From contig JAJYWA010000003.1 of the NCBI GenBank assembly GCA_021791755.1, positions 6,719-70,718 of the forward strand: a stretch of DNA of 64,000 nucleotides. The letters are read 5' to 3'. Position 1 is the first letter of the stretch. Every line of letters starts with the position of its first letter. This document shows positions 3,956 through 43,211 of the stretch, in pieces. This DNA is from Actinomycetes bacterium (GTDB lineage Bacteria > Actinomycetota > Acidimicrobiia > Acidimicrobiales > JAJZXF01). The notes beneath the pieces are model-generated. The model had not been told where the DNA came from. It did no database searches and saw nothing but the letters and a program-made list of their open reading frames with translations. The translations under genes and the position numbers were made by a program.

Positions 3956-6151
3956 TCAGCGGGTCGCGGCGACGATTGCCATGAGCGCCATGAGCGTAAC
4001 GAGCATGTAGGCCATGTACCATGCCAGCTTGCCCGATTGCAGCCGTCTTGCGTGGCGAGCTGCCTGGAGCCACGTAGCGCGAAGCGGTTGGTACAGGTAG
4101 GTGGCAACCGGGTCGGAGACGGTGCGGGCGTACTCGGTGCGAGTTGGAGCGCCAGTGCCAGGCGTCGTGGTTGCGTCATTGCCAAGCCCAGTGTCATTGC
4201 CAAGCCCAGTGTCATTGCCAAGCCCAGTGCCATTGCCAAGCCCGGTGTCAGCGCCAAGCACAGCAGTGGTTGCGCTGGCGGTATCGGCAGGGATCCTGCG
4301 TACCTCTGTCCGGCTCTGCAGCAGGCTCGCCAAGACGTGCCGGAGTGGGTTGACGTAGGCGAAGGAGGTGTAGCTCGCGGTTCTCGCGGGCTCGCTCGAA
4401 GCCGACGTCCACGGCGGCACCCTCCGTACCCGGAGAAAAGATCCTCGTGAGACGAGAACGGTGAAGACGAACGTAGCCGTGAAGAACGAGCAGAGGATGA
4501 TCCACAGCCACGTCGGAGAGAGAATGGAGAAGTTCGCAAAGACCGGCTGGAGCACCATCGGAGAGCGCAGCGCACCGCGCACGAGGCTGGCGCTCACCAC
4601 AGTGCTGAGGCCGCGGGCGATAAAGCGCACGAGCAGTGGAGCCAGGACCGCGGCTGCGATGCATGACGTTGCCAGCGCGCCAACGCCGAGCCTGCCGACG
4701 ATGCCCTCCACCGTGGGGCTCTCCCCCGTGAGGCCCTGGGCTCCTGCGTAGCGATCTAGTCTCTCCTCCCGGGATCGGCCTCCAGGTGGTCCGCCGAGCA
4801 CGCTGAAGCCGATGAGCCTGGCGAAGCAGAGGGCGGCGAGTCCTGCCGTGAGGGCTGCCATCGCACCTGCTCCGGCAAGCGCGAGGCGCATCGCGAGGTC
4901 ATGCACGCGGAACTGCTGCATCAGGGCTTCGAGCACGAACCACTCGGAGACGAACCCGATGCTCGGCGGGAGGCCGGCTAGTGTCAGCGCCGATGCGGCA
5001 AAGGTAGTCGCACTCCAGGGAATACGCTTCACGAGGCCCGAGATTCCGTCGAGCCGTGTGGTGTGACCGACTGCTTCCGCGTTGCCGGCTGCTATGAAGA
5101 TCCCTGCCTTGGCGAGTGCGTGCGACACGGCTTGCAGTGTCGCTGCAAGAAGCCCGAGGGCTGCGAGCGGTTTGTTGCCGGTTGCTGCGCCGGTGAGCGC
5201 CACGCCATACGAGGTGAATATGATCCCGGCGTTCTCGATGCTCGAGTAGGCGATCGTGCGCAGCAAGTCCGACTGTACAGCGGCGAACGCGATGCCGCCG
5301 AGAGCCGTGGCGCCTCCCGTGAGGAGCACTCCGGCTGCCAGCCACAGTGGCGGGTGCCCGAGGACTCCGAGGGTCCTCCATAGGCCGTAGATGCCGACGT
5401 TCATGCCCACGGCCGCGAGCGCTGCTCGCGCTGGTCCGGGCGCAGACGGATAGGACGCCGGCATCCAGACCGAGAATGGAACGATGCCGATCTTCGCAGC
5501 GAAGCCGACGACGATGAGGATCCACGCCACATCGCGTGCTGGACCCGGCGCTACTGCATGCCATGATGCGATCGCAAAGCTGCCGGAACGTGACGAAAGG
5601 AGCAGGAAGCCGAGTAGGAGCGATGCTCCAGATACCTTGGCTGTCGACAGGGCAAGCCAACCTCGCTCGACGTGGTCTTCGGACGTCCTCTTGTGGACGA
5701 TGAGGACGTAGAACGACACGGAGAGCAGCTCCCACGCGAACAGGAAGGAGAAGGCGTCGCCTGCAAGCACCACGGCGGCCGCCGACGCGGCCAGCAGCGC
5801 GTACCCGGCGCCCAGCCCGCGACCGCTGGCGCCGGCGTTGGAACGTGACCAGGAGACGAAGCACATTGAGACGCAGAGAGCCACCGCCGAGGTGATCACC
5901 AGGAACATCGCAGAAAGGCCGTCGAGCACTAGGAAGGTATGCCCGATGCCGAACAGGCGCCCCAGTGAGAGCCTCTTTGCGCCATGCGCGGCCATGACCA
6001 TTGCGCCCGATGCCAGGAGGCAGCAGTTCGCCAGCGCGGTCAGTATGTACGGTGCGGATCGAGTCCAGCGTGAACGTGGGCCGAGGACCAGGTCTATGGC
6101 CATTGCGGCGCCGAGGCAGGAGAATGCCGCGACGAGCAGCTCTGCGGTCAC
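3956..6151 (-). CDS. NuoL/HyfB-like proton-conducting antiporter-type membrane subunit
   Basis: 731 aa and polytopic, with NuoL/HyfB-like blocks (WELLSVSFY, AKIGIVPFSVWMP, HALAKAGIF). GTG start overlaps the upstream stop as GTGA. The C-terminal region carries a (TGLGND)n insertion. Confidence 0.85.
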   Translation of the reverse strand: MTAELLVAAFSCLGAAMAIDLVLGPRSRWTRSAPYILTALANCCLLASGAMVMAAHGAKRLSLGRLFGIGHTFLVLDGLSAMFLVITSAVALCVSMCFVSWSRSNAGASGRGLGAGYALLAASAAAVVLAGDAFSFLFAWELLSVSFYVLIVHKRTSEDHVERGWLALSTAKVSGASLLLGFLLLSSRSGSFAIASWHAVAPGPARDVAWILIVVGFAAKIGIVPFSVWMPASYPSAPGPARAALAAVGMNVGIYGLWRTLGVLGHPPLWLAAGVLLTGGATALGGIAFAAVQSDLLRTIAYSSIENAGIIFTSYGVALTGAATGNKPLAALGLLAATLQAVSHALAKAGIFIAAGNAEAVGHTTRLDGISGLVKRIPWSATTFAASALTLAGLPPSIGFVSEWFVLEALMQQFRVHDLAMRLALAGAGAMAALTAGLAALCFARLIGFSVLGGPPGGRSREERLDRYAGAQGLTGESPTVEGIVGRLGVGALATSCIAAAVLAPLLVRFIARGLSTVVSASLVRGALRSPMVLQPVFANFSILSPTWLWIILCSFFTATFVFTVLVSRGSFLRVRRVPPWTSASSEPARTASYTSFAYVNPLRHVLASLLQSRTEVRRIPADTASATTAVLGADTGLGNGTGLGNDTGLGNDTGLGNDATTTPGTGAPTRTEYARTVSDPVATYLYQPLRATWLQAARHARRLQSGKLAWYMAYMLVTLMALMAIVAATR
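4175..4264. repeat. 18-bp in-frame tandem repeat x5 (the last two units diverged) in the HyfB-like gene
   Basis: GTCATTGCCAAGCCCAGT occurs at 4175, 4193 and 4211, with variants at 4229 and 4247. It encodes (TGLGND)n. Confidence 0.9.
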
Positions 6152-7275
6152 CCTAGAGCACCGCCGTTGTCGTTCCCACCGCCGTTGTCGTCCCCACCGC
6201 TGTTGTCGTTCTCGTCGTGGTGCGCGTGCTGCCGGCCGGCCTGGCGCCGAGGTCCTTCTTGTTCCGCTCTTGCGGGCTCATGAAGCTGGCCGGCCGAACG
6301 CTCGCCGAGGATGCCGACTGCGAGCAGTATCCCGTGGAGGAGGCTGAACGGGCTCGGAGGCGAGCCAGGCACCCAGACATCGACATCGAACAGGTCGGAC
6401 ACGCCTCCTCCAACACCGGAGCCTTCCCCACCAGCGCCAGCGCCAGCACGGCCACCAGCGCCAGCGCCTGACGACCTTCCGGCCGGTGAGCCGAGCATCC
6501 CGGCCAGCGTGCTTCGGGGACTTCCGGCCGAAGGATCGCCGGGGTTGGCGACGGCCGAGATCATGCCTCCGCTGATTGCGTCGACGCCAGCGGCCATGAC
6601 CACTCTTGGATGCGGCATGGCTTCGAGCGTGCGTGCGAGCGGTTCGCGCATCTGATCGACACACGCGCCGGTAATGAGGAGGAGGTCGGCATGCCGCGGG
6701 CTGGCGGTGAAGAAGATGCCCAAACGAGCGACGTCGTAGATGGGGTTCGTGAGGGCCGCTACCTCCCACTCGTCGCTGCCGTCGGAGCCGGAGTCGACGT
6801 GTCGTACGTGCACCGACCGGCGTAGCGCCTTGGTCCGCCTTCGCAGCTCAGAGGTGATCAGATGCAGGTTCTGGTCATCCTCGGCGACGTTCCCGACGAC
6901 GTTCCCGACGACGATCCGGCGGCGTTCGAGCGAGGCGATCTCGATGGTGGGGTCGAACCTGAAGAGATCGGGCCGGGCCGCCACGCACCTGCCGCATAGG
7001 ATGCAACGTCCCCTGTCCACGGCAACGACATCGTTGTCGACGTGAATCGCGCCGGTAGGGCATGCCGCGGCGGCGTCTCTTACGGGAGCCGCGGCGCTGG
7101 GACCTTGCCCGGGAAGCGGTTGGGGTGGCCAGCCAGGCCCTTCGGGCGCGAGGCTCTGAGCCCCGATGCTTCGAGGCGCGACGCTGGCTCGCCAGTTGCC
7201 ACCGTAGCCGTCAGGCTTGCGTGGGTAGCGGCTGGTGACGATGCCCTTGCTCAGTCCCTTCAGGATCCACGACAT
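6148..7275 (-). CDS. fusion of a HycF/NuoI-like ferredoxin domain with a HycG/NuoB-like small subunit; Fe-S ligands are mostly lost
   Basis: 375 aa from the internal ATG (MSWILKGLSKGIVTSRYP, the HycF/NuoI N-terminus). The NuoB-like core is LTNPIYDVARLGIFFTASPRHADLLLITG ... VDVWVPGSPPSP. Its ATG overlaps the stop of the upstream gene (TAATG). Confidence 0.8.
   Translation of the reverse strand: MSWILKGLSKGIVTSRYPRKPDGYGGNWRASVAPRSIGAQSLAPEGPGWPPQPLPGQGPSAAAPVRDAAAACPTGAIHVDNDVVAVDRGRCILCGRCVAARPDLFRFDPTIEIASLERRRIVVGNVVGNVAEDDQNLHLITSELRRRTKALRRSVHVRHVDSGSDGSDEWEVAALTNPIYDVARLGIFFTASPRHADLLLITGACVDQMREPLARTLEAMPHPRVVMAAGVDAISGGMISAVANPGDPSAGSPRSTLAGMLGSPAGRSSGAGAGGRAGAGAGGEGSGVGGGVSDLFDVDVWVPGSPPSPFSLLHGILLAVGILGERSAGQLHEPARAEQEGPRRQAGRQHAHHDENDNSGGDDNGGGNDNGGALG
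6159..6212. repeat. 18-bp in-frame tandem repeat x3 at the 3' end of the HycF-HycG-like gene
   Basis: CACCGCCGTTGTCGT(T/C)CC occurs at 6159, 6177 and 6195. It encodes the NDNGGG-type tail. Confidence 0.9.
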
Positions 7276-8810
7276 TACAGGGCGGCTCCTGCGATCGATA
7301 GGCCGAAGCTGGCTTCGATGAAGGCAAAGTCGGTGAGGATGTCCCCCTGGAAGGCTCGAGGCAGCAGGGCGAGGTTGTGGAAGGACGCGGGCCGTGACAA
7401 AGTGCTCTCCAGCCGGCCGCCTCGCACGCTCACGAGGCTCAGGATCTCCCCATGTGGGCCCTCCGACCAGCCAATGTTCTCGCCATCCCTTACATCGATC
7501 GTCGTGACTCGTGAGCTCTGATCGCGCATGCCGGCAGCGTCGCCAGCCGCGACGAGCTCTGAGATCGCCTTGCATGCCATCTTGAACGAGGCATGAAGCT
7601 CCTCCTGGCGGACCTCCAAGCGCGCGAGAGCATCGCCAGCGCTGCGGGTTGCCGGCGCTTGCGGTTCCAGCTCGGCGTAGGCGGCATAAGGGCGGTCGGT
7701 TCTGGTGTCTTCGACGATGCCTGATGCCCGTGCCAGCGGACCGACTGCACCATGGTCGCGTGCTGTCTTCTCGTCGATGAGCCCGGCGCCGCGCAGGCGA
7801 TCGACGAACGACGGGGTTTGAAGCGCTGCTTCGGTGTCGGACATCACTGCCTTCTCGAGGTCGTGGAGCGCAGCGTGAGCGTCGCCAAGTGTGGATGCGG
7901 CGGGAGCGGCCACGCCGCCGGGCGCCACCACTCCGCGCCCGAAACGACTCCCGCAAAGATCAGCTCTCAATCTCTGGGCGTGCTCCTTGCCGATGCCGAA
8001 GCGGGCGTTCGCCACTGCGAGGCCGGCGGCTTCGGTGAGGCGAACGGCAACGTCGAGGTGGTTGGCAATTCGTTCGAGCTCGGCGTGAAGCACCCTCCAG
8101 AGTGCGGCTCTCCGCGGGATGCTGGCGTCGCAGATCCGCTCGACTGCCTGGCAGAAGGCTATGGCGTGCGCCACCGAAGCCACTCCCTCGATCCTTTCGG
8201 CGAGCAGTGCTCCGGTCTCGATGTCTAGCTGGTCGAAGCGCTCCTCGATCCCGCGGTGCTTCGGGTGGGGCCTGACTTCGAGATGGGGGATCTCCTCGCC
8301 CGGGGTCTCGATCATGTACTCGACCGCCTCGAACACCCCGGAGCGCACCGGACCGTATGGCATGGTGAACATTCCTTCGCCAAGGACATGGCTGGTCGTG
8401 GGGCCGGAGCCTTGTGAGATCAAGGGGCGCAGGTGGGGGTGGCCTACCGGGATGATCCCGTACATATCGTGCATCTTTCGTTCGTACCAGTCGGCAGCAG
8501 GCGCCAAGCGTGTCAGTGAGGGGACGGAGAGCACTTGGCCACCCGCGGCAGACCTGTCGGATGACACCGAGGATGGGACGTAGGACGAGAGGACATGGAT
8601 GCTGCTCGGGCGACCTCGGCCGCACAAGATCGCGTAGATCTTTCCTGCGCGTGAGCCGTCCGGTCCAGGCGAGCGACCCGGGCCGAGGAGGCCGGCGAAG
8701 CGCATTCCCTCGCGTGCTCGAGAGGCAACTCTCTGGGCCAGATCCCAGGCGGGCGCCTCTGAGACGGTGATCGCCGGCTCGGGGACGCCAGTCGTCTGAT
8801 CCGCGTTCAT
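7275..8810 (-). CDS. HycE/NuoC-NuoD-like large subunit without [NiFe] cysteine ligands
   Basis: 511 aa. NuoC-like block WYERKMHDMYGI. NuoD/HycE-like blocks PYGPVRSGVFE, PHPKHRGIE and LCGSRFGRGVVAPGGV. There is no CxxC motif anywhere in the protein. Confidence 0.85.
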   Translation of the reverse strand: MNADQTTGVPEPAITVSEAPAWDLAQRVASRAREGMRFAGLLGPGRSPGPDGSRAGKIYAILCGRGRPSSIHVLSSYVPSSVSSDRSAAGGQVLSVPSLTRLAPAADWYERKMHDMYGIIPVGHPHLRPLISQGSGPTTSHVLGEGMFTMPYGPVRSGVFEAVEYMIETPGEEIPHLEVRPHPKHRGIEERFDQLDIETGALLAERIEGVASVAHAIAFCQAVERICDASIPRRAALWRVLHAELERIANHLDVAVRLTEAAGLAVANARFGIGKEHAQRLRADLCGSRFGRGVVAPGGVAAPAASTLGDAHAALHDLEKAVMSDTEAALQTPSFVDRLRGAGLIDEKTARDHGAVGPLARASGIVEDTRTDRPYAAYAELEPQAPATRSAGDALARLEVRQEELHASFKMACKAISELVAAGDAAGMRDQSSRVTTIDVRDGENIGWSEGPHGEILSLVSVRGGRLESTLSRPASFHNLALLPRAFQGDILTDFAFIEASFGLSIAGAAL

Positions 8811-10303
8811 CGCCGTTTGGCTCCGCTGGCGCTGAGCTCATGCGCCGCTCGATCGATGAGATGCATGAGCTGGGCCGGCACGTGAACACCGAGCACAACC
8901 AAGGCAACGATCCCTGCTGCCATCGGCACGACCATCCAGCCGCTCAGCTCTCCGCGGCCTGGAGAGCCTTCGGGCGCTGGCGCAAGGAGGATGCGGGTGG
9001 TGTGCCAGGACAGCCCGAAGAACGCTATCGTCACCAGCACGACGAGCGCGGCGGCGGCGATCCCGCCTGATGCCGCCATCCCGCCCGAGACGATCAGGAG
9101 CTCGCTGCGGAAGATGCCGAATGGCGGCAATCCTGAGAGGGCCAGCACGGCCAGCAGGAGCATGGCGCCGCTCCAGGGCAGTAGGCGGGCCCCGCCGCGT
9201 ATCACGGTCATGTCCTTTGTGTGGAGCTTCTCTTTCAAGCTGCCCGCGCCGAAGAAGGCGGTGGACTTCGCGGCCGCGTGAGCGAGAACTTGGAGAAGGA
9301 CGCCCGTGATGGCCACCGGGGCTGCGAAGCTCATGCCAATTGCCAGGATCCCCATGTGCTCCACGCTCGAGTAGGCGAGGAGCCGCTTGAGATCACGCTG
9401 CAGCGCAAGGTACAAGGACGCGAGTAGGAGCGACGCAATGCCGAAGGCCAGCAGCACGTCTCTCGGGAACCCAGGGTCCAAGGATCGCGTCGCGACCTGA
9501 TCAAAACGGAGGATCGCATAGAAGCTGACTGCGAGGAGGGAGCCGGAGAGGAGGGCCGAGACGGGGGTGGGCGCTTCGGAGTGGGCATCGGGCAGCCAGG
9601 TGTGAACGGGCGCTAGTCCCATCTTCGTCCCGTACCCGAGAACTGCCAGGACGAACGCCAGCCGTACCATCTCTGGTGGGAGCTTGCGAGCGGCGTCTAC
9701 GAGGGGACCGAAGCCGATGCTGAACCCATGACCTATCCCGACTGCTCCGGCGGCGTAAATGAGCACGGTGGCCAAGAGCGCGAGGCCGAGGCCCATCGAA
9801 GCGATCAGTAGGTACTTCCAGGACGCCTCTGTTGCTCCGTCGGTGTCATCAAGAGCTACGAGCAGCGCGGAGACCACGGTTGTGATCTCGATCGCCACCC
9901 ATACCAGCGCCAGGCCGTTGACGATCGTGGCTATGTCCATTGCCCAGCAGAAAACGTTCAGGCCGAGGAGGAAACGCCGGTTGAACCGGTTGGACGAGCC
10001 TCCGTCGCGATGCGCCAGGTAGCCCACCGAGTACACCGATGTTGCGGCGTAGAGGAAGGTGGTGACGAGGCAGAACACCACCGATATGGAACCCGCCGAC
10101 AGCCATGAGCCCAGTCCCACGGAGCGAGGCCCGCTGGCGAGATGGGCCGTGAGCCAGACTGCCGAGGCGAAGCTGGCTCCCCCGGCAAGGACCGTGGCAG
10201 TTCGCGCTGTTCTCGCCCCGGCCAGCCAGGACAATGCGGTGGCGACAAGCGGCGCGATGGCTATTGTCACAAGGGCCGCTGTTCCCATGGTCACCATAGT
10301 CAA
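8807..10303 (-). CDS. NuoM/NuoN/HyfF-like proton-conducting antiporter-type membrane subunit
   Basis: 498 aa and polytopic. Contains GTKMGLAPVHTWLPDAHSEAPTPVSALLSG and SSVEHMG blocks. Overlaps its neighbours as TTGA and ATGA. Confidence 0.85.
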   Translation of the reverse strand: MTMVTMGTAALVTIAIAPLVATALSWLAGARTARTATVLAGGASFASAVWLTAHLASGPRSVGLGSWLSAGSISVVFCLVTTFLYAATSVYSVGYLAHRDGGSSNRFNRRFLLGLNVFCWAMDIATIVNGLALVWVAIEITTVVSALLVALDDTDGATEASWKYLLIASMGLGLALLATVLIYAAGAVGIGHGFSIGFGPLVDAARKLPPEMVRLAFVLAVLGYGTKMGLAPVHTWLPDAHSEAPTPVSALLSGSLLAVSFYAILRFDQVATRSLDPGFPRDVLLAFGIASLLLASLYLALQRDLKRLLAYSSVEHMGILAIGMSFAAPVAITGVLLQVLAHAAAKSTAFFGAGSLKEKLHTKDMTVIRGGARLLPWSGAMLLLAVLALSGLPPFGIFRSELLIVSGGMAASGGIAAAALVVLVTIAFFGLSWHTTRILLAPAPEGSPGRGELSGWMVVPMAAGIVALVVLGVHVPAQLMHLIDRAAHELSASGAKRR

Positions 10304-10965
10304 CCTCGCAACTTCGTGATCGGCTTGGTTGACAGCGTCCCTCCTCTCTGGTGATGCACTCGCATCAGGAGCCCGAAGGCCACGACGGCGACCAAGAGGT
10401 CGAACAGGAAGGCAATCTCCATGACCACAGGCAGCGCTGTCGCCACCACGAGGCTCGCCACTGAAACGGCGTTCTCCACCGAGAAGAACGCGACCCCCTG
10501 AGTGGCGACGTCCGACCGTAGGATCGCTAGAAGAACGGAGATGAGCAGGCTCGCGATCGCAATGCTCAGCGCCGGGCTCGGCAGGGTTCGCACGGGGAGC
10601 TTCAGCGCGCCGATCGCGAAGAACCCGAACGCAGAAGCGGCGGCAGCGATCAGCAGCATCGACGCGGTTCTCATGCCGGCGCTCGAGGACAGGTCAGTGT
10701 CGAGGCTTGGCGCAAGCCGCCCCATGATCGCCGGGACGAGAACTACCTTCGTGAGGAAGGACACCCCTGCAAGAAGGTATAGGCCGTCGAGGCCGTGGGT
10801 GGCGGCGACCACGACGACGAGCGCCGTCACCGCGATGGATTGGAACCGGTAGAGGCGGACTTGCGAGCGCACGAATGGCGCTCGGAGCATGGCCATTACG
10901 CATAGGAGCACCGTGAGGCTGATCACGTCAGCCGCGCTCTGGAACGCGTTCGGCGCCGCAGTCAT
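10300..10965 (-). CDS. HyfE-like (NuoK-related) small membrane subunit
   Basis: 221 aa from the internal ATG (MTAAPNAF). About 7 TM segments, and the size and hydropathy resemble hydrogenase-4 component E. The longer ORF to 11118 overlaps the upstream gene. Confidence 0.7.
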   Translation of the reverse strand: MTAAPNAFQSAADVISLTVLLCVMAMLRAPFVRSQVRLYRFQSIAVTALVVVVAATHGLDGLYLLAGVSFLTKVVLVPAIMGRLAPSLDTDLSSSAGMRTASMLLIAAAASAFGFFAIGALKLPVRTLPSPALSIAIASLLISVLLAILRSDVATQGVAFFSVENAVSVASLVVATALPVVMEIAFLFDLLVAVVAFGLLMRVHHQRGGTLSTKPITKLRG

Positions 10966-10981: not shown

Positions 10982-11932
10982 TCATCCGCCTCCGAGGTAG
11001 AAGAGCAGCACGGCGAGGAGCGCCAGGACGAACGCCGCGGCAAGGAGCTCGGTGATCTTGAACAGGCGCAGCTTCGAGAACGAGTTGTCGAGGACGCTGA
11101 AGACGGCCCCCACTGCAAGCGTCTTTGCCACTAGCACTGGAACTGCCACAAGAACTGTGCCGAGCTGCAGGCTTCCTCCGAGGCCCCATGGAGCGACGAA
11201 CACGTCGACGAGGATCGTGTAGAGGATCATCTGCTTCATATCCGATCCCCAGGTGAGCAGGGCGAGAGCAGGGCCCGAGTGCTCGAGCGCCTGGGCTTCG
11301 CCGATCATTCCGAGCTCCAGCGTGCCCGAGTGCGTCTCGACCGGGATGCGCGCTGTGTCGGCCAGTACGACGAGGAAGAAGGCGACAGCCGCGAGGATGT
11401 GAGACGGCCTCAGCTCCTGGGATGTCGAGGAGTGTAGCGTTGCGGCCATCGCATAGGGAAGGTCTGTGGCTGTGAGCAAGCCGACTGCGAACACGACGAA
11501 GAGGATCGTCGGCTCGATGAGCGCTGCAAAGGTCATCGAGCGGCTGCTGCCCAGCTGCGCGAAGGGAGCGCGGGTCTCGGCTGCCGCGACCGCGACGGCA
11601 AAGCCGGCTGCGGCGAGGATGAAGCCGCCTCCGAGGATGTCGCCGGTGTAGCCGAGAGGCAGAGGATAGGAGGTCAGGACGGGGATGAGCATGGGCACGG
11701 TGAGGTAAGCGGAGAAGGCGAACATTGGCGCGGCAAGGAAGAACCAGCTGGAGCCTTCTGGAGCGAGTGTCTCTTTGCGAAACAGCTTGAAGAGGTCGTA
11801 ATAGGGCTGGAGGACGCGCGGACCGCGACGACCCTGAAGGACGGCCTCCAATTTTGCTATGACACCGCTGACGAGCGGCGACGCTCCGAGGATCGTCAGC
11901 ACTTGCAGTACTTGCACCTGCCAGGGAACCAT
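10982..11932 (-). CDS. NuoH/HycD-like membrane subunit
   Basis: MVPWQVQVLQVLTILGASPLVSGVIAKLEAVLQGRRGPRVLQPYYDLFKLF aligns from memory with the HycD N-terminus. The start is set at ATG 11932; the ORF is open to 11989. Confidence 0.85.
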   Translation of the reverse strand: MVPWQVQVLQVLTILGASPLVSGVIAKLEAVLQGRRGPRVLQPYYDLFKLFRKETLAPEGSSWFFLAAPMFAFSAYLTVPMLIPVLTSYPLPLGYTGDILGGGFILAAAGFAVAVAAAETRAPFAQLGSSRSMTFAALIEPTILFVVFAVGLLTATDLPYAMAATLHSSTSQELRPSHILAAVAFFLVVLADTARIPVETHSGTLELGMIGEAQALEHSGPALALLTWGSDMKQMILYTILVDVFVAPWGLGGSLQLGTVLVAVPVLVAKTLAVGAVFSVLDNSFSKLRLFKITELLAAAFVLALLAVLLFYLGGG

Positions 11933-12252
11933 TTCTAGGCTTGCGGTCAATTCTCCTCCGGGTCTCCTCCGGGCGGTCGCGTAATCCATTCACGTGTCGC
12001 TCAGAGGCCATCAACCCGAGGAGCTCGGCTGCAGTTCCGCCTGGCAGCGTCGCACCCGATTACCACGCTCCGTTGTGCAATGCCCTCGTACAAGGCCCTC
12101 AGGGTCCTGACGCTCGCAAGGCTCTGACAACTCAGAGGTGTGGCAATGGGTATTCGGGCATCGCACCCGCTGATGCACTACTGCACCTGTCAAGGCGCGC
12201 TGCCCACCGGAGCCTCATCCGGCTTCTCGTTACTATACCAGCTCCGCAGGCC

Positions 12253-12298
12253 GCCGCAGCAAGACGGCAGGGGAGGCCGCAGCAAGACGGCGAGTACA
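12253..12298. repeat. 23-bp tandem repeat x2 in the divergent intergenic region
   Basis: The 16-nt core GCCGCAGCAAGACGGC is perfect at 12253-12268 and 12276-12291. Confidence 0.9.
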
Positions 12299-12493
12299 TG
12301 GCTTGGTCAGCAGGTCGAGCACGCTGGTGGGCGGTTTAGCTCGCCCAGCGTCCGGCTGCTCGTTGGGTACTATAGTGAAGTGAGGTCAGCATTCTCGCCG
12401 GCCTGCGGGGTCGTCATAGCCTATTGGCATGTTGGCTGGCAGATTTGCCGGCCATGATCAGGTAGCCGGACGGCAATTCACTTGGCAGGGAGA

Positions 12494-30201: not shown

Positions 30202-30924
30202 CTAGCTTCGACAACTGACGAATGCGCGGATGTGCGCTTTGGCAGTGGCTGCAAATTGCCGAAAGGACAAACTCGACGATGGGAAAGTGACCTTCGTAGG
30301 TGTGCTGTTCGTTGCAAGCGTCAGACAGCAAGCGCTGTACTTGCGTTCAAGCACCAACCGGTCACATAGCACCTCATATCGCTTGGCATACGACGAACCC
30401 TTGAAGATCGGATCAACTGGGAAGTACGGTTCCACGTTGCGAACCGGCGCATGGACCTTTGCGCAGTCCTCTAGGAGGAAGAAGTAGCCGAGGAAAGGCG
30501 CCGGATTCTTACCGAATCGACCTTCCCGGTATGCCGTCCAAATGTCTTCGGCGTTGCCGATGGCTTCTTCCGTTCGGTTGTTGAAGTTGTTGCCAAAGCT
30601 CGGACCGACCTGCGACTTGAATTCCACAGCCACAAGGAGCTGGCCGTCAACGACGACCAGCAAGTCCCACTTCTTTTCCGGTCGGTAATAGCCGGGCAGC
30701 TCGAGCGCCGTGCCGACCCTGACATGGCCGGGCTCGAGTCCGGCATCGACGAGTACGTCTGTGAGGAGAACTTCGAGCGCACCCATCTGCGCTCCTCCCG
30801 TGACCGCACCCCGGGCGCCTGCGTCGATCCGTCCAGAATCGATCTGACGCTGCTGTTGTCGGGCACGAGAGTCCCAGAGCTCCTGGACGGCATCCTGAAA
30901 CCGCTCATCGAGGTTCGCTAGCAC
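30202..30924 (-). CDS. type II restriction endonuclease, XhoI/PaeR7I-like
   Basis: 240 aa. I recognise the block WDLLVVVDGQLLVAVEFKSQVGPSFGNNFNNRTEEAIGNAEDIWTAY as the XhoI/PaeR7I family (from memory, unverified). The GTG start overlaps the methylase stop by 7 nt. Confidence 0.65.
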   Translation of the reverse strand: MLANLDERFQDAVQELWDSRARQQQRQIDSGRIDAGARGAVTGGAQMGALEVLLTDVLVDAGLEPGHVRVGTALELPGYYRPEKKWDLLVVVDGQLLVAVEFKSQVGPSFGNNFNNRTEEAIGNAEDIWTAYREGRFGKNPAPFLGYFFLLEDCAKVHAPVRNVEPYFPVDPIFKGSSYAKRYEVLCDRLVLERKYSACCLTLATNSTPTKVTFPSSSLSFRQFAATAKAHIRAFVSCRS

Positions 30925-32660
30925 TCGAAGGCCCTTCGGGCATCTTCGATGCCGTAAGCGGCGAGCGCTGCCTCCGTAGCCTCGGGGACATTTCGATCAC
31001 GGAATGCATTTCGGAGACGAGCCTGGATGTTGCTGGCTATGGAGTCCGGTTCAGGCACTCGGATGCGTCGAAGGTATTGCGCCTGGAACCGAAGCGTCCC
31101 GCCTCGCATCTTCACGCAGTAGGCTTCGATGAAGAGCTGAGCAACACGGGAGAGCAGAAGGCCACCGAGAACTTCAAGGTCCCAGCGGTCGGACGTCAGG
31201 TAGTAAAGGTTGTGGTGCGGATACGTCTCACCCCGGTCGAGCGTTGGGTTGCTCATAAGCTTCATGTCCGGGAAGTAGAGCTTTGGCTTCCCGGTCAGGC
31301 CGTGGTTCACACGATCAATCGTCCTGTACCAGCCGCGAGCATTGCGCTTGGCGATATTGCGCCGGGTTAGCTCCTCGCGGTGGTCGTCTAAGTAGCGCCG
31401 GAGGAGAGGGTGCGAGTCGAGATCGACGAGCCCCTTGCCGTTCTGCCACGGATCTACGAGGTAGTGGCCCGACCAGCGCAGTTGACCAGTCCTCGTGTCT
31501 GCTGCCATCGCGAGGGGGAGCAGGCGGTCTGGCTCGACGACCGTGCTGTCCGTCGTGATGTACACGCTGTCGTTGCCCGTAGCAACACCGATGCCCACCT
31601 TGGTCCCCGTACGTTCATCTTCGAGCGGGTGGAGCTCGTCCTCCAGACGTTGCAGCACGGCGAGCTGATCGGGCCCGACTGAAGGCCACGGAGTGTGCCC
31701 GCTGAACCAGTGCGGCGCACGGGTTGCGGTGAAGCCTTGGAGCATCACGTCTCGTCCGTCAGCAAGATCGACGAGCGACTTGGCAATCGTGGAACCCGCC
31801 GGAGTCACACCGGAATCAGCTCCCGCATGGGCTACGACGACGTTGTCCTGCTGTGCTCGGCGAATGACGATGACCGCTGGATATGCTGATACTTCGTTCT
31901 CGAACGCCGGAGCGTCGTGCATCTCGATGACGACGTCCATGCTGAAGAGTTGTGCAACCAGGCGGCGCAGCTCTGCTCCGTATGCCGAGCGCATCCAGCG
32001 GTCGGCGCAGATGAACGCGAGCGCACCACCTTCAGCGAGCTGTCGCAGGCCCGCTTCGATGAAGCCGACGTAGATATCGCAGCGACCAACCATCGTCGGA
32101 AAGAGCCGGCGGTAGGCAGCGAACGAACCCTCCGGAAGGTCGTCATAACGGATGTAGGGAGGGTTGCCGATGACGAAGTCAGCCCTGTGGTCCTTCCTGG
32201 AGAGAAGGAGGTAGTCGCCAACGGCGACCCAGCCTTGCGCTATGGAGCGAGCCGTTCTCGCGTCGATTCCCCGATGGCGCAACTCCTGGACGGCGAGGTC
32301 GATGACCATGCGTGCCGACCGCTCATTGAGTTCGTAGGCGCGGAGAGCATGTCGGGCCTCGGAGAGAGAACGATCGTGCCTCTCAAGGGAATCGAGGAGG
32401 CGCCGGATCATCGGAAGCAGGAACGCTCCTTCACCTGCCGATGGCTCAACGGCATGCCGGACTGCAAGGTCGTTTTCTGGGACATATCCCACAAGGTCGA
32501 GGATCAGATCAACGACCCACTCCTTCGTGTAGACGATGCCCTTCGGCTCACCGACGGCGGTTATGCCCTCGATTTCGGGATCAGGCTCGGAGGGCTGAAT
32601 CGCACGACCCACGAGATCGACGTCGATGCCGAGGTCAAGTTGGGTCTGCTGTGCCGTCAT
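30918..32660 (-). CDS. N6-adenine DNA methyltransferase (Eco57I/TaqI-like gamma class)
   Basis: FVIGNPPYIRYDD (the NPPY motif) and an AdoMet block VEPSAGEGAFLL. The start is set at ATG 32660 (MTAQQTQ). The in-frame extension to 32786 lies inside the duplicated JAB-associated segment. Confidence 0.8.
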   Translation of the reverse strand: MTAQQTQLDLGIDVDLVGRAIQPSEPDPEIEGITAVGEPKGIVYTKEWVVDLILDLVGYVPENDLAVRHAVEPSAGEGAFLLPMIRRLLDSLERHDRSLSEARHALRAYELNERSARMVIDLAVQELRHRGIDARTARSIAQGWVAVGDYLLLSRKDHRADFVIGNPPYIRYDDLPEGSFAAYRRLFPTMVGRCDIYVGFIEAGLRQLAEGGALAFICADRWMRSAYGAELRRLVAQLFSMDVVIEMHDAPAFENEVSAYPAVIVIRRAQQDNVVVAHAGADSGVTPAGSTIAKSLVDLADGRDVMLQGFTATRAPHWFSGHTPWPSVGPDQLAVLQRLEDELHPLEDERTGTKVGIGVATGNDSVYITTDSTVVEPDRLLPLAMAADTRTGQLRWSGHYLVDPWQNGKGLVDLDSHPLLRRYLDDHREELTRRNIAKRNARGWYRTIDRVNHGLTGKPKLYFPDMKLMSNPTLDRGETYPHHNLYYLTSDRWDLEVLGGLLLSRVAQLFIEAYCVKMRGGTLRFQAQYLRRIRVPEPDSIASNIQARLRNAFRDRNVPEATEAALAAYGIEDARRAFEC

Positions 32661-32734
32661 GCGGTCGCCTCGCACCCATGGTTGTCGCGTGACCAGGACG
32701 TTCGGGCTCCCTTGAAGAGCAGCGATGGAGTGGT

Positions 32735-33410
32735 CATGGTTCGATGTTACGAGAACGGTGTGACGCTCTACCGGATATCCGCTCAAATCAGGGCCGGTGC
32801 AGGAACACCGACGTGTAGCCGCTCGTGGCGACCGCCACCAGGTGATCCACCAGAGCGAGCCCGTGACGGCCGTACGCAGCGGCTATGGCCCGGAAGGACG
32901 CCCGTTCGGCTTCCGTGGCGCTGAGCGGCCCGTCGCGGCGATAGCGGACGAGGATAGCGCCCGTCGCGCGGCACGCCTGGGCTCCGAGGAGCACCGGATG
33001 GGCGGAGAGCCGGACCAGCCTGAACCCAGCCGACGGCGACGACCACATGCCCGACGAAGCGGTGGCGGTCGTCCATGTAGACGACGAGGACCAGGTCCTC
33101 CCGGCGGGAGCGGACCAGGCCCCTTGCGACCCGTGCAGCCGATGCCGGGTCGTCGATACGCCTGGGCAGATTGGGCCCTGCCTCCGGAACAGCGTCCTAA
33201 TGGGACGCCGTTTGGCAGGAGCGTCCGGTGAGTGCTCGGAAGAAGAAGTGGAGTGAGGTTGTTGGGACCATCGTGGCACCCTCCAGTGAGTGTGGGTTCA
33301 TGGAGGTGACCCACACCCCTGGCCATGGCGGAGCGCCCGAGGGAACATCGTTCTCGAGCACGTCTTGAGGACGCAGCACGTCGCACGCGGCAGTACCAAG
33401 GTGCGGAGCC
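32735..33410. repeat. dispersed direct repeat, copy 1 (JAB-like gene plus a conserved upstream ~130 bp)
   Basis: Shares long near-identical runs with 35073-35460, for example CCGACGAAGCGGTGGCGGTC(G/A)TCCATGTAGA, GGTCACCTCCATGA and TTACGAGAACG(G/C)TGTGAC. Confidence 0.75.
32788..33180 (-). pseudogene. RadC/JAB-like gene, frameshifted and catalytically degenerate (copy 1)
   Basis: One frame reads LVVYMDDRHRFVGHVVVAVG. The next frame reads RLSAHPVLLGAQACRATGAILVRYRRDGPLSATEAE...LVDHLV. The HNHPSG position reads RYRRDG. The frame change is near 33012-33024. Confidence 0.55.
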
Positions 33411-34173: not shown

Positions 34174-34994
34174 CGCTGTACTCCTATCGTTCTACCGTAC
34201 TCTTAACAGTACGGAAAACCTAACTGGATGTCAACATGGGTCGTCCCTCCAAGCAATGATCCGAGTTGACGTTTCCTCACGCGACAGTTCGGGCCACGGG
34301 CGCCGACGCCTGACAACCCGCCCACTGACGCGGCGCAGACGAGGAACGCATCCAGTGGGGACCTGAAGGTAACCCGCCCTGAGCGTCATCCCTAGTCCAT
34401 CCCTACAACTGTTCGTTGAATCGATCTGCGGCGAGTCCGGCGAAAACAGCCCACAGCCGCGAAAACCCAGCAAATATGCTGGAGTCCAGGGCTCCGGTGT
34501 GCCACGAACGAAAGGAGAGGCGTGAAGTTATGACGTAGGTAACGCTGCTGTTTTCGATGCTGTGCGAGAGATGAAGGATGGCCCTTCGGAGTCGCCCTGC
34601 GGGGAGAGGCTCCAAACCGCCGTGTGCTGCGTTGGCTGAAGACCGTCGTGGTAAGCGATCACGGAAAAGGCACGCTTGACGTGTCAGGTGGGACTGTCGA
34701 GCGATGGCAGCGCTTGTTCATCGACGAGATTGACACTGTTACCGCTGACCATCGCCCCACCTGGCAGACCCCGGACAAGTACAACCCAGCCCGCCTGTCC
34801 AATAGCGCAGTCGACATCGCCCACACCATCTGAACTGAACACGCTCCCCTGACGACAGTGCCTAGCCTGCTGCGGGAAATTGAGGGCGAAGCCTTTGCCC
34901 GACCTGCGGAACCTAGGTTCGTAGGTAGCCCGGTAGATGTTCGGTGCGATACCGCCCCTCGGGATGCGGTCGAGTTCCTGAGCGATCGTTGGGT

Positions 34995-41075: not shown

Positions 41076-43211
41076 ATGGTTGATGACGAGCGGCGCGAGG
41101 AAGTCGTCTTGGTGTTTGGCGCAGATGGGCGAGCGCGCCATGTGGTCGGCGAGGACGTGGTGCTTGCTGGGCGCCAAGCGAAAGAGCTTGCTGGCGCCGA
41201 GCTAATGGACCTCGAGGGCCTCGTCGAGCAGGCGTCACGAGGAGGGCGGCCCGGACCGTTGCGGCTCCAGACGAGGGACCGTGCCGATCTGGACCTGACC
41301 GGGTATGTGCTCGACTTGCGAGGCGATCCAGTGGTGGCTGGTGTGCTGGTCTATGCCACCGGTGAACCTGTCGTGCGAGAGGTTGGCGCTCAGGGTGGGG
41401 AGGCAGCACTAGAAGGCGCCTCGGCTGGAGTGTCGCCGGACATCGCAGGTGTGGATCGCAAAGGGCTGGCGAGTGTGAGCACCGGTGTAGACGCGAGCGA
41501 TGCGGTAACGGACGCGGGCGCTCCAGAGCGTTCGCAGCGTATGGTCGACATGGCGAGAGACGCCTACGTAGAGGTGAACGCCGAGGGTGTGATCACGGAC
41601 TGGAACAAGCGCGCCGAAGACATGTTCGGCTGGAAGACGGAAGAGGTAATGGGCAAGTCGCTGCTGCAGGTTCTCGTGAGGCCAGAGCAGCGCCGGGACC
41701 TTTCCCTGCAGTTGAGCGAGCTGGCCGTAGCAGGTGAGGGAGGCTGGTCTGGCTGGCGGCGAGAGATGATGTTCGTTCATCGCGATGGACACAACGTGGT
41801 TGTGTCGGGTTCGCCGTGGGTCATTGGCTCGGGCGCATCGCTCCGGGTTGGAAACTTCCTCCACGACGTTGCCGAGGAAAGGGCGACCCGGCAGGCACTT
41901 GCCCACTCCTACGTGTACGATTCGCTCACCGGGCTCCCGAACAGGACGCTGTTCACTAGGAAGCTGTCAGCCGCCTTGGCGGCCCGCAAGCAGTCGAAGG
42001 CGGGCAAGGTCGCGGTGATGATGCTCGACCTCGACCGCTTCAAGGCCGTCAACGAGAGCTTGGGGCACGGGGCAGGAGATGAGGTTCTCGTGGCCACCGC
42101 CAAGCGCCTTGGCGAGGAGGTAGACCGTGGCGATGTGGTCGCCCGGTTGGGAGGGGATGAGTTCATGATCCTGATCGAGGGGCGTGAAGCGGATCTCCGC
42201 GCGACCCAACTTGCGAATGCGATAGCGCGTGCCATGAGAGAGCCCTTCTCTGTGGCCTCCAGCGAGGTGTTCATCTCGACCAGCATCGGGGTGGCGATCA
42301 CGAAGGGAGACTATGACGACTCCCAGGTCCTGCTGAGCAATGCTGATGCTGCTGTGTACCGTGCGAAGGAGCGCGGCGGCGCCTGCTACCAGGTGTTCGG
42401 CGAGGACATCCGGGTGAGCGTTTTCGGGCGCATGGCGACAGAGGCGTCTTTGCACCGTGCGCTGGAGCGCGATGAGCTCAGAGTCTTCTTTCAGCCGGTC
42501 GTGGATATCAGAGAGATGGGCATCGTGAGCCCCTCGAGCGTGGAGGCGCTGATCCGCTGGGAGCACCCGGAGAAGGGCATGGTGGCTCCCGACAAGTTCA
42601 TACCTGTTGCCGAAGAGACCGGGCTCATCGTGCCTATAGGTGCATGGGTTCTGGAGGAGTCCTGCAAGAGGCTCAAGAATTGGCAGGGCAACGACGTCGG
42701 CCTGCCCGGCGGAGCCATGTCGGTGAACCTATCGGCAAGGCAGCTCGACCAGCCCAACCTCGCAGGGATGGTGGGGGACGTTCTTGCCGGAACGGGTCTC
42801 GCCCCGGAGCACCTGACACTGGAGATCACCGAGACTGCTCTGATGACCAACACAGAAGCGGCCGTGACTGTATTGAACGCGTTGAAGAAGCTGGGTGTGA
42901 TGCTTGCGATCGATGACTTCGGCACCGGGTTCTCCTCCCTTGCTTACCTGCGCGAGCTTCCGCTTGACGTTCTAAAAGTGGACAAGTCTTTCGTGGACGG
43001 GCTCGGCATGAGCAAAGATGACGAGGCCATAGTCGGAGCTGTGATTAATCTGGCTCACACTCTCGACCTCAGGGTAATCGCTGAAGGCGTCGAGACCGAG
43101 GATCAGCTCGAGGTGCTGCGGGACCTCGGCTGCGACTACGCCCAGGGTTTCTTGTTCTCGCGTCCGGTGCCGGAGGCCGACTTGGCGCAGGCGTTGGCGT
43201 TCTCCTCGTGA
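41076..43211 (+). CDS. PAS-GGDEF-EAL signalling protein (c-di-GMP turnover)
   Basis: [10 protein letters not shown] (GGDEF), EALIRWEHP (EAL), [10 protein letters not shown] and KVDKSF. A PAS-like segment lies at [24 protein letters not shown]. Confidence 0.9.

Follow-up and report, generated by a model that had tools for sequence, protein, structure and literature searches.

A group 4 hydrogenase-like large subunit without [NiFe] ligands, encoded in an Actinomycetota operon with a candidate link to fluoride

The operon and its large subunit

The window analysed here, a stretch of 64,000 nt of contig JAJYWA010000003.1 from an Acidimicrobiales bacterium (Actinomycetota), carries on its minus strand a six-gene operon for a membrane complex related to the group 4 [NiFe] hydrogenases and to respiratory complex I. 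The genes follow one another in the order NuoH/HycD-like, HyfE-like, HyfF-like, large subunit, small subunit and HyfB/NuoL-like. The subject of this report is the large subunit (7275-8810), in which an original prediction, made from the sequence alone, had found none of the four cysteine ligands of the [NiFe] site. The open reading frame (ORF) comprises 511 codons and a stop; its strand, which the prediction had left unstated, is minus.

Translation, Pfam, phmmer searches of the PDB and Foldseek identified the large subunit as a NuoC-like part fused to a NuoD/HycE-like one. In Pfam it matched Complex1_30kDa (PF00329, NuoC; partial) and Complex1_49kDa (PF00346, NuoD), with a sub-threshold match to NiFeSe_Hases. 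The top NCBIfam model was NuoD (NF004739, 149.8 bits against a cutoff of 360), and TIGR01962 scored 125.6 bits against a cutoff of 459. Phmmer placed HycE (7z0s_E, E = 1.9e-32) and MbhL (6cfw_L) at the top of its PDB matches. An AlphaFold2 model was built from 24 family sequences (predicted local distance difference test, pLDDT, 78; predicted template modelling score, pTM, 0.84); when searched with Foldseek it returned the HycE chain 7z0s_E of Escherichia coli formate hydrogenlyase (FHL) first, with a template modelling score of 0.78, and fused NuoCD chains next. By homology and by fold the protein is therefore a group 4-type large subunit, and it keeps the hydrogenase/complex I fold as had been proposed; the NuoC-like block WYERKMHDMYGI and the NuoD-like block LCGSRFGRG..PGGV are both present in the translation.

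The register of the ligand motifs was set by HMMER alignments to solved structures (HycE, MbhL and Aquifex NuoCD, 7q5y_B). At the N-terminal site, where group 4 large subunits carry RxCGxCxxxH, the protein reads ERIEGVASVAH (residues 205-215; 8166-8198, minus strand), and both E. coli HycE ('dRvCGiCgfAH') and P. furiosus MbhL ('eRmCGiCsfsH') align to it as 'eRiEGvAsvAH'. The motif is thus R-I-E-G-V-A-S-V-A-H, with Glu for the first cysteine (E208), Ala for the second (A211) and the His retained, exactly as first described. At the C-terminal site the MbhL alignment extends to query residue 501 ('...ieas' against '...vaias'), and its ungapped continuation sets FGLSIAG against the C-terminal motif of MbhL, which we take to be D-P-C-x-x-C, so that S505 and G508 occupy the third and fourth cysteine positions. 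The string IEASFGLSIAG (residues 498-508; 7287-7319, minus strand) accordingly stands where DPCxxCxx(H/R) is found in group 4 enzymes. The prediction had given this string correctly and had erred in putting the stop codon directly behind it, as three residues intervene (FGLSIAGAAL, then stop); the large subunit bears no C-terminal extension for a maturation protease.

As no cysteine occupies any of the four ligand positions, the Ni-Fe site cannot form. The protein has five cysteines (63, 220, 227, 286 and 413) and, in agreement with the prediction, no CxxC in its 511 residues. A shifted register that would bring cysteines to the Ni-Fe positions was considered and rejected: the nearest candidates, C220 and C227, lie 12 and 19 residues off and are unaligned to ligands in every PDB alignment. 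The quinone site of NuoD is missing as well. Aquifex NuoCD aligned with 'GPlHPgtHG' on 'GPvRSgvFE' and with 'RmDY' on 'RiEG'. In the first of these segments (GPVRSGVFE, residues 153-161; 8328-8354, minus strand) the alignments to HycE, MbhL and NuoCD place R156 at the His of GPxH, F160 at the quinone His of NuoD and E161 at a conserved hydrogenase Glu, which is kept; in the second, G209 falls at the quinone Tyr. Both NuoD quinone ligands are therefore absent, and together with the NuoD score far below cutoff this bears out the view that the sequence is not of the NuoD quinone-site type. The large subunit can neither bind Ni-Fe nor offer the NuoD ligands to a quinone.

In order to see how far these substitutions extend, relatives were collected in two ways. 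A search of 5.8 billion proteins with the large subunit gave 2649 matches, and the best 120 of these (46-73% identity) all have ERxEGxASVAH and FIEASFGLSxAG. When one genome per GTDB species was scanned, a relative turned up in 440 of them; the 80 best loci, designated by L-numbers, were analysed further, and all are from Actinomycetota: Acidimicrobiales, Nocardia and other Mycobacteriales, Amycolatopsis, Sciscionella, Actinophytocola, Streptosporangiaceae/Trebonia, Actinoallomurus, Actinacidiphila and Acidothermus. In a census of 200 distinct relatives, Glu (200/200), Ala (193/200), Ser (193/200) and Gly (200/200) stand where the four ligands used to be, and a CxxC occurs anywhere in the large subunit in only 3 of them. 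R156 and E161 are invariant (200/200), and of the hydrogenase scaffold, E161, the HRGxE motif and R473 remain in 195-200. Because the replacements are near-invariant in 200 relatives, the loss of the cysteines is a property of the family and not a chance event, and the substituted residues are under selection in their own right. One of the remaining cysteines, C286 (in LCGSRFGRG, 7932-7958), is family-specific; it is present in 193 of the 200 relatives, and HycE has Thr at its position.

Small subunit, membrane arm and selection

The small subunit (375 aa; 6148-7275, minus strand) has a start codon that overlaps the stop codon of the large subunit (ATGA). In it a HycF/NuoI-like ferredoxin part is joined to a HycG/NuoB-like part, with Pfam matches to Oxidored_q6 and Fer4 and PDB matches to HycG (7z0s_G; E = 1.3e-22 for the E. 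coli protein), MbhJ (6cfw_J) and HycF (7z0s_F). The four-cysteine proximal [4Fe-4S] site that marks the small subunit of a hydrogenase has been lost here too. The proximal (N2-type) CxxC of HycG and MbhJ is replaced by D165 and D168 (GSDGSDEWE, 6763-6789, minus strand), the third cysteine by D232 (GVDAISGG, 6565-6588, minus strand) and the fourth, that of PGCPP, by S305 (PGSPP, 6355-6369, minus strand). Across 78 locus sequences these positions hold Asp (78/78), Glu or Asp (78/78), Asp or Glu (78/78) and Ser (74/78). In the ferredoxin part, alignments to ferredoxins showed that the ligands of the partner (second) cluster are gone and that the set for one cubane is left, C72(P) plus C91xxC94xxC97 (6985-7062, minus strand), to which ferredoxin motif 1 contributes its last cysteine and motif 2 its first three. 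These four cysteines are kept in every sequence that covers the columns (78-80 of 80 rows, the others being gaps). With one cubane ligand set and no N2 ligands, the hydrophilic arm keeps at most one [4Fe-4S] cluster and lacks Ni-Fe, an N2-type relay and quinone ligands.

The small subunit of the window is ~100 residues longer than those of its relatives (375 against ~260 aa), the extra length falling at residues ~240-375 (6148-6560) as a Gly/Ala/Ser-rich insertion before PGSPP and an Asp/Asn/Gly-rich C-terminal tail. Its gene contains in-frame tandem repeats, one with an 18-nt unit (x2.9) and one with a 12-nt unit (x2.8), at 6159-6211 and 6885-6917. A paralogous Ehr-like cluster, of the class of hydrogenase relatives taken up below, was seen in one of the other loci (L007:13279-16869, minus strand). 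Its large subunit reads IEASFWLTVAG, without the C-terminal cysteines, while its NuoB-like subunit retains all four (GSCAAC..GAC..PGCPP). Since that paralogue is cysteine-less in the large subunit only, there are at least two grades of such complexes, and the family of the window represents the further-reduced one.

The membrane arm is made up of the remaining four gene products, all encoded on the minus strand. The NuoH/HycD-like subunit (10982-11989) has a weak NuoH match, and PF00146 is recorded for an identical gene; its start may be the ATG at 11932, as the ATG at 11989 falls in the leader. It has many conserved acidic residues. The HyfE-like subunit (10300-10965) matched NCBIfam PRK11492 (E = 3.7e-22). 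The HyfF/NuoM-N-like antiporter-type subunit (8807-10297) and the HyfB/NuoL-like one, encoded by the last gene of the operon (3956-6151), matched the NCBIfam models for hydrogenase 4 subunits F (332 bits) and B (379 bits), in both cases below cutoff. When the HyfF-like subunit was aligned to NuoM and MbhH, the channel residues were located at Glu139 in transmembrane helix 5 (TM5 E139), TM7 K227, TM8 K306, TM11 H342 and K346, and TM12 E401, and these are at least 95% conserved. The NuoL-like subunit has conserved E141, K220, H344, K348, E403 and E408; where the TM8 Lys would be expected, it shows no conserved one. The putative ion-channel residues of both antiporter-like subunits are thus conserved. 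The NuoL-like gene contains an in-frame tandem repeat (4175-4263; an 18-nt unit x4.9) that encodes GLGNDT repeats, and its product has 731 aa in the window ORF against 725 aa on other contigs of the same organism.

The six-gene order, D-P-Q-E-S-B, recurs in every one of the 80 loci long enough to show it. The ratio of nonsynonymous to synonymous substitution rates (dN/dS, omega), which had been suggested as a check on the orthologues, was calculated by the method of Nei and Gojobori for close pairs only (dS 0.12-0.36), because in distant pairs dS was saturated or biased by G+C content at third codon positions; the distant-pair median omega of ~0.35 is inflated and was set aside as unreliable. 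In close pairs omega was 0.15-0.23 (large subunit), 0.19-0.40 (small subunit) and 0.05-0.27 (NuoH-like subunit), with similarly low values in all other operon genes. All six genes are under purifying selection, and the complex is therefore functional. A pseudogene or decaying operon was considered and excluded by the low close-pair omega, the near-invariant replacements in the 200-sequence census and the fixed gene order.

Fluoride riboswitches and gene neighbourhood

In Actinacidiphila alni (L072), a Streptosporangiaceae metagenome-assembled genome (L067) and Amycolatopsis echigonensis (L013), the first operon gene is directly preceded, in its own orientation, by a match to the fluoride riboswitch family RF01734 at or above the gathering score; further RF01734 matches in the loci precede usp and crcB genes. 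A covariance model (R1) was built from the RF01734 matches and a second model (R2) was built for a variant aptamer, and both were run on the 60 loci with 150 nt or more of sequence before the operon. R1 gave strong matches before the operon in 34 of the 60. The other loci are mostly Acidimicrobiales and carry the variant, which R2 detects at 46-81 bits, so that with both models combined a clear aptamer was found in 58 loci and a weaker one in 2. In these relatives the operon is, as judged by covariance models, directly preceded by a fluoride riboswitch.

In the variant aptamer P1 is formed by CCGG-AUGAGGCU-CCGG and is followed by an extra hairpin and then by GAACCGCC..GGCUGAUGGCCUCUACG. The hairpin, between P1 and P2, ranges from 12 to ~50 nt, and the aptamer lies ~50-110 nt upstream of the first operon gene (loci L003, L010-L012, L018, L022, L024-L027, L037, L038, L044, L048, L050, L052, L053, L059, L069, L076, L077, L001 and L007). 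RF01734 scores the variant of L076 at 27.3 bits (E = 9e-6), below its gathering threshold, and standard annotation would therefore miss it. By eye, the pseudoknot partners co-vary (GGAGC/GCUCC, GAGGC/GCCUC, GAAGC/GCUUC) and the 3' tail CCUCUACC is complementary to the downstream Shine-Dalgarno region GGUAGAGG, which fits a translational ON switch that would sequester the Shine-Dalgarno sequence. A match to the flpD RNA in L076 (E = 0.011) was put down to chance, as it overlaps the aptamer. In L071 (13482) and L080 (16002) a second copy of the NuoH-like gene, ~43% identical, likewise has an aptamer in front of it.

In the window itself RF01734 gave no match, either at its gathering score or at E <= 10, and R1 gave none. 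The two best matches of R2 in the whole window both fall in the operon leader, where they would constitute a candidate split fluoride-riboswitch aptamer (12000-12222, minus strand). The 5' half, CCGGAUGAGGCUCCGG (12168-12222), scored 21.2 bits (E = 4.6e-5) and the 3' half, ...GAACUGC...GGGUUGAUGGCCUCUGAG (12000-12059), scored 9.1 bits (E = 0.28). Both are on the operon strand and in the correct order, and the 3' half ends ~70 nt before the likely start codon. The extra hairpin between them is apparently expanded by an insertion of ~110-160 nt with uncertain boundaries; in the minimum free energy fold the insertion closes as a domain of its own and 5' GAGGC pairs with 3' GCCUC. A sister lineage (L082 and L083, large subunit 73% identical) has the same split design, with both halves kept and indels in the insertion. 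The expanded aptamer is somewhat more likely than not still to sense fluoride. A TATAGT box resembling the -10 consensus (12232-12237, minus strand) lies 10 nt upstream of the aptamer and is conserved in L082. An opposite-strand ORF of 103 aa over the leader (L084 2354-2665, approximately 12146-12457 of the window) is probably spurious, having no Pfam match and being uncalled in L082.

Clustering of flanking ORFs across the 80 loci showed recurrent genes within a few kb of the operon for a universal stress protein (Usp), the fluoride channel CrcB, DUF190, enolase, a MutS_V ATPase, a dynamin-like GTPase and an MFS protein. Usp, CrcB, DUF190, enolase, MutS_V and the dynamin-like GTPase are typical cargo of fluoride riboswitches. 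The usp gene lies directly 3' of the NuoL-like gene in 23 loci, in the same orientation and at a median distance of 4 nt, and in L010 it has a fluoride aptamer of its own (L010:12336-12389). Genes for formate dehydrogenase (FdhF) or a HycB-type protein were found neither in the window operon nor among the recurrent neighbours in the 80 loci, and a NuoEFG-type donor module was likewise not recurrent near the operon in those loci. No hyp or maturation-protease gene was present among the Pfam-scanned ORFs of the 64-kb window, a result that holds for the window and not for the genome.

The rest of the window is housekeeping in character (icd, mdh, his, aro, pyr, coaBC, metK). Among these genes, an XhoI-family restriction endonuclease gene adjoins an Eco57I/N6-type DNA methylase gene (30202-32786, minus strand), likely an inserted restriction-modification pair. 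A group II intron domain (RF01999, 97.5 bits, E = 9.5e-19) was matched at 34573-34689 on the plus strand, where no ORF of at least 200 aa is listed, and a gene for a PAS-GGDEF-EAL signalling protein followed by a prepilin peptidase (A24) gene, unrelated to the large subunit, lies at 41076-43211 on the plus strand. The organism was found in mine-drainage and sediment metagenomes; low pH favours the entry of hydrogen fluoride (HF) into cells (PMC11139923).

Relation to known complexes and possible function

Group 4-like complexes without Ni-Fe cysteines form a named class, Ehr, and the core finding is for that reason not new. Their large subunit lacks the Ni-Fe cysteines, as in EhrA/C/L/S of Geobacter (PMC7894505); the class was generalised by Marreiros et al. 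2013, as cited in later work (PMC4758237, PMC6349859, PMC10284858), and the 'hyc' genes Rv0081-87 of Mycobacterium tuberculosis are regarded as Ehr (PMC6728331). The function of Ehr is still without assignment (PMC7894505, PMC10284858, PMC6349859). With Ehr complexes such as that of Geobacter sulfurreducens (GSU0739-45) the window operon shares NuoL-, NuoH-, HyfE- and NuoM/N-like subunits beside a large and a small one, and it combines the two marks of the class, a group 4-like gene set and the absence of [NiFe] cysteine motifs. It differs in that the small subunit of its family has Asp, Glu or Ser in place of the four proximal cysteines and is fused to a one-cluster HycF-like domain, and in that the operon is tied to fluoride riboswitches in its relatives.

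Comparison with the other members of the superfamily gave a similar mixture. E. coli FHL and hydrogenase 4 offer the best sequence and fold match, the same Hyf membrane subunit types and the N-terminal NuoC-like fusion; unlike them, the window complex lacks the [NiFe] cysteines, the proximal cluster, the protease extension and a nearby FdhF or HycB, keeps one of the two HycF clusters and scores below cutoff with all NCBIfam Hyf/Hyc models. The Q-module of complex I (NuoCD/Nqo4 plus NuoB/Nqo6) has the same fold and no Ni-Fe, and E208 stands at the Asp of its 'RxDY', but the window complex has neither the quinone His and Tyr (F160, G209) nor the N2 cluster nor NuoEFG, and reaches 149.8 of the 360 bits required of NuoD. 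To Mrp antiporters and the Mrp-like module of Mbh and Mbs it is linked by two antiporter-like subunits with TM5 Glu, TM7/TM8 Lys, TM11 His/Lys and TM12 Glu (the TM8 Lys not being found in the NuoL-like subunit); Mrp, by contrast, has no NuoH-, NuoD- or NuoB-like subunits, and the window complex has a hydrogenase-type cap and one Fe-S site. From the known RF01734 regulon, finally, the Acidimicrobiales-type loci and the window are set apart by the extra hairpin between P1 and P2, that of the window being ~110-160 nt larger. What has been added to the original prediction is that the class bears the name Ehr, that the small subunit is stripped as well, and that the operon of the relatives belongs to the fluoride riboswitch regulon; to the picture of the class the analysis contributes the further-reduced grade without a proximal cluster, the universal riboswitch link and the variant aptamer class.

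Genes named 'formate hydrogen lyase' have been listed behind crcB-motif RNAs since 2010 (PMC2864571) and have been treated as real FHL (PMC2864571, PMC8004769, PMC11139923), and a 2024 review explains the link as a shift to fermentation (PMC11139923). In the accessible literature, which leaves out Marreiros 2013 and Baker 2012, no connection between these genes and Ehr was found. For Actinomycetota the FHL label is contradicted by the sequences reported here. The complex is predicted to be neither a hydrogenase nor FHL nor a quinone reductase of the NuoD type, and the operon is probably an ion-handling stress machine. Fluoride, which gets into the cell as HF, lowers the cytoplasmic pH and depletes the proton-motive force, and among the gene classes linked to fluoride riboswitches Na+/H+ antiporters rank second in frequency (PMC11139923). 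Given this acidification, the frequency of antiporters as cargo, the two Mrp-type subunits and the small number of redox cofactors, a fluoride-induced translocator of protons or cations is the simplest reading and the likeliest of those considered. The ORF would then be an EhrL-type large subunit of a six-subunit Hyf-like membrane complex of Actinomycetota that works as a fluoride-induced, non-hydrogenase ion translocator, a description that we regard as about evenly poised between right and wrong. A rise in cytoplasmic fluoride would switch on the operon, and the complex would move protons and/or Na+ across the membrane and so restore pH and ion balance under HF/F- stress, acting more nearly as an Mrp-type antiporter with a remodelled hydrophilic cap, largely free of cofactors, than as a redox pump. 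A further step, and a tentative one, is that a conserved carboxylate/Ser pocket has taken the place of the [NiFe] site and the adjacent [4Fe-4S] cluster, and that this pocket binds protons or else a hard cation, perhaps in the form of Mg-F, and drives or gates the antiporter-like arm independently of redox chemistry. The carboxylate-lined former metal pocket may serve as the binding or gating site for ions or protons, and the lone [4Fe-4S] cluster may be structural or regulatory.

Several observations weigh against a fluoride-induced translocator. An invariant [4Fe-4S] ligand set argues for some electron transfer or redox sensing, which would be superfluous in a pure antiporter. In the window the aptamer is split, scores 21 and 9 bits in its two halves and is missed by Rfam, so that fluoride control of this copy is a candidate only, and no crcB, usp or DUF190 gene occurs in the 64 kb. 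No result indicates an energy source or a transported ion; three metatranscriptomes of the same study gave nothing usable and are uninformative, and the function of the operon, like the carboxylate pocket, is proposed from sequence.

The surviving cluster is the natural starting point for a redox-driven ion pump with new chemistry, in which electrons from ferredoxin or another donor would pass through it to an acceptor in the remodelled pocket, such as menaquinone or a small molecule, and drive H+ or Na+ translocation as in Mbh, Mbs and complex I. The invariance of the four ferredoxin cysteines, the conserved charged residues of the NuoH-like and both antiporter-like subunits and the retention of E161, HRGxE and R473 in 195-200 of 200 sequences are in keeping with such a pump, and the general suspicion about Ehr complexes is that they link charge translocation to a redox reaction in the cytoplasm (PMC6349859). 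The route for the electrons is what makes it unlikely: the N2-type relay next to the pocket has no ligands, both NuoD quinone ligands are absent, no FdhF or NuoEFG donor module recurs near the operon, and, by the general geometry of complex I, a lone cluster more than 20 Å from the pocket is a poor electron path. The same pocket residues could instead belong to a fluoride-specific device, D165, D168, D232 and S305 together with E208 holding Mg2+ or another hard cation that binds F-, so that the cap would sense or admit fluoride and gate or feed the membrane arm for extrusion of F-/HF or for F--activated extrusion of protons. It would account for the universal link of operon and aptamer in the relatives and for the replacement of each lost proximal cysteine by an acidic or hydroxyl residue (74-78 of 78) beside an invariant E208 (200/200), and it is a Mg2+ complex of fluoride that the riboswitch itself recognises (PMC11139923). 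Yet a fluoride site would be without known precedent in this fold, and CrcB exporters are encoded beside many such operons, so that a second exporter is not needed; we consider the device quite improbable.

That the operon is a decaying hydrogenase remnant, or a true hydrogenase or FHL with an alternative ligand set, is hardly credible. Public annotations do name the relatives 'formate hydrogenlyase subunit 5' or 'Ni,Fe-hydrogenase III large subunit', and the reviews follow suit for the riboswitch-linked genes (PMC11139923), but purifying selection on six genes, substitutions near-invariant in 200 sequences and a fixed gene order speak against a remnant, and the lack of cysteines at the ligand positions, of hyp and protease genes in the 64-kb window and of a recurrent formate dehydrogenase speaks against a working enzyme.

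If a fluoride-induced ion translocator is the correct reading, the 'formate hydrogen lyase' class of the riboswitch regulon is not FHL, at least in Actinomycetota, and Ehr complexes would have their first physiological role. For ~20 years Ehr have stood as relatives of hydrogenases that lack a Ni-Fe site and have no assigned role, and control of 'formate hydrogen lyase' genes by fluoride riboswitches has been on record since 2010-2012; the data indicate that, at least in Actinomycetota, the two are the same thing. Ehr would thereby gain a testable physiological trigger in fluoride, and one of the most frequent cargo operons of the fluoride field would have its identity corrected. The family would also stand as a natural experiment in which the coupling machinery of complex I is kept without its redox chemistry.

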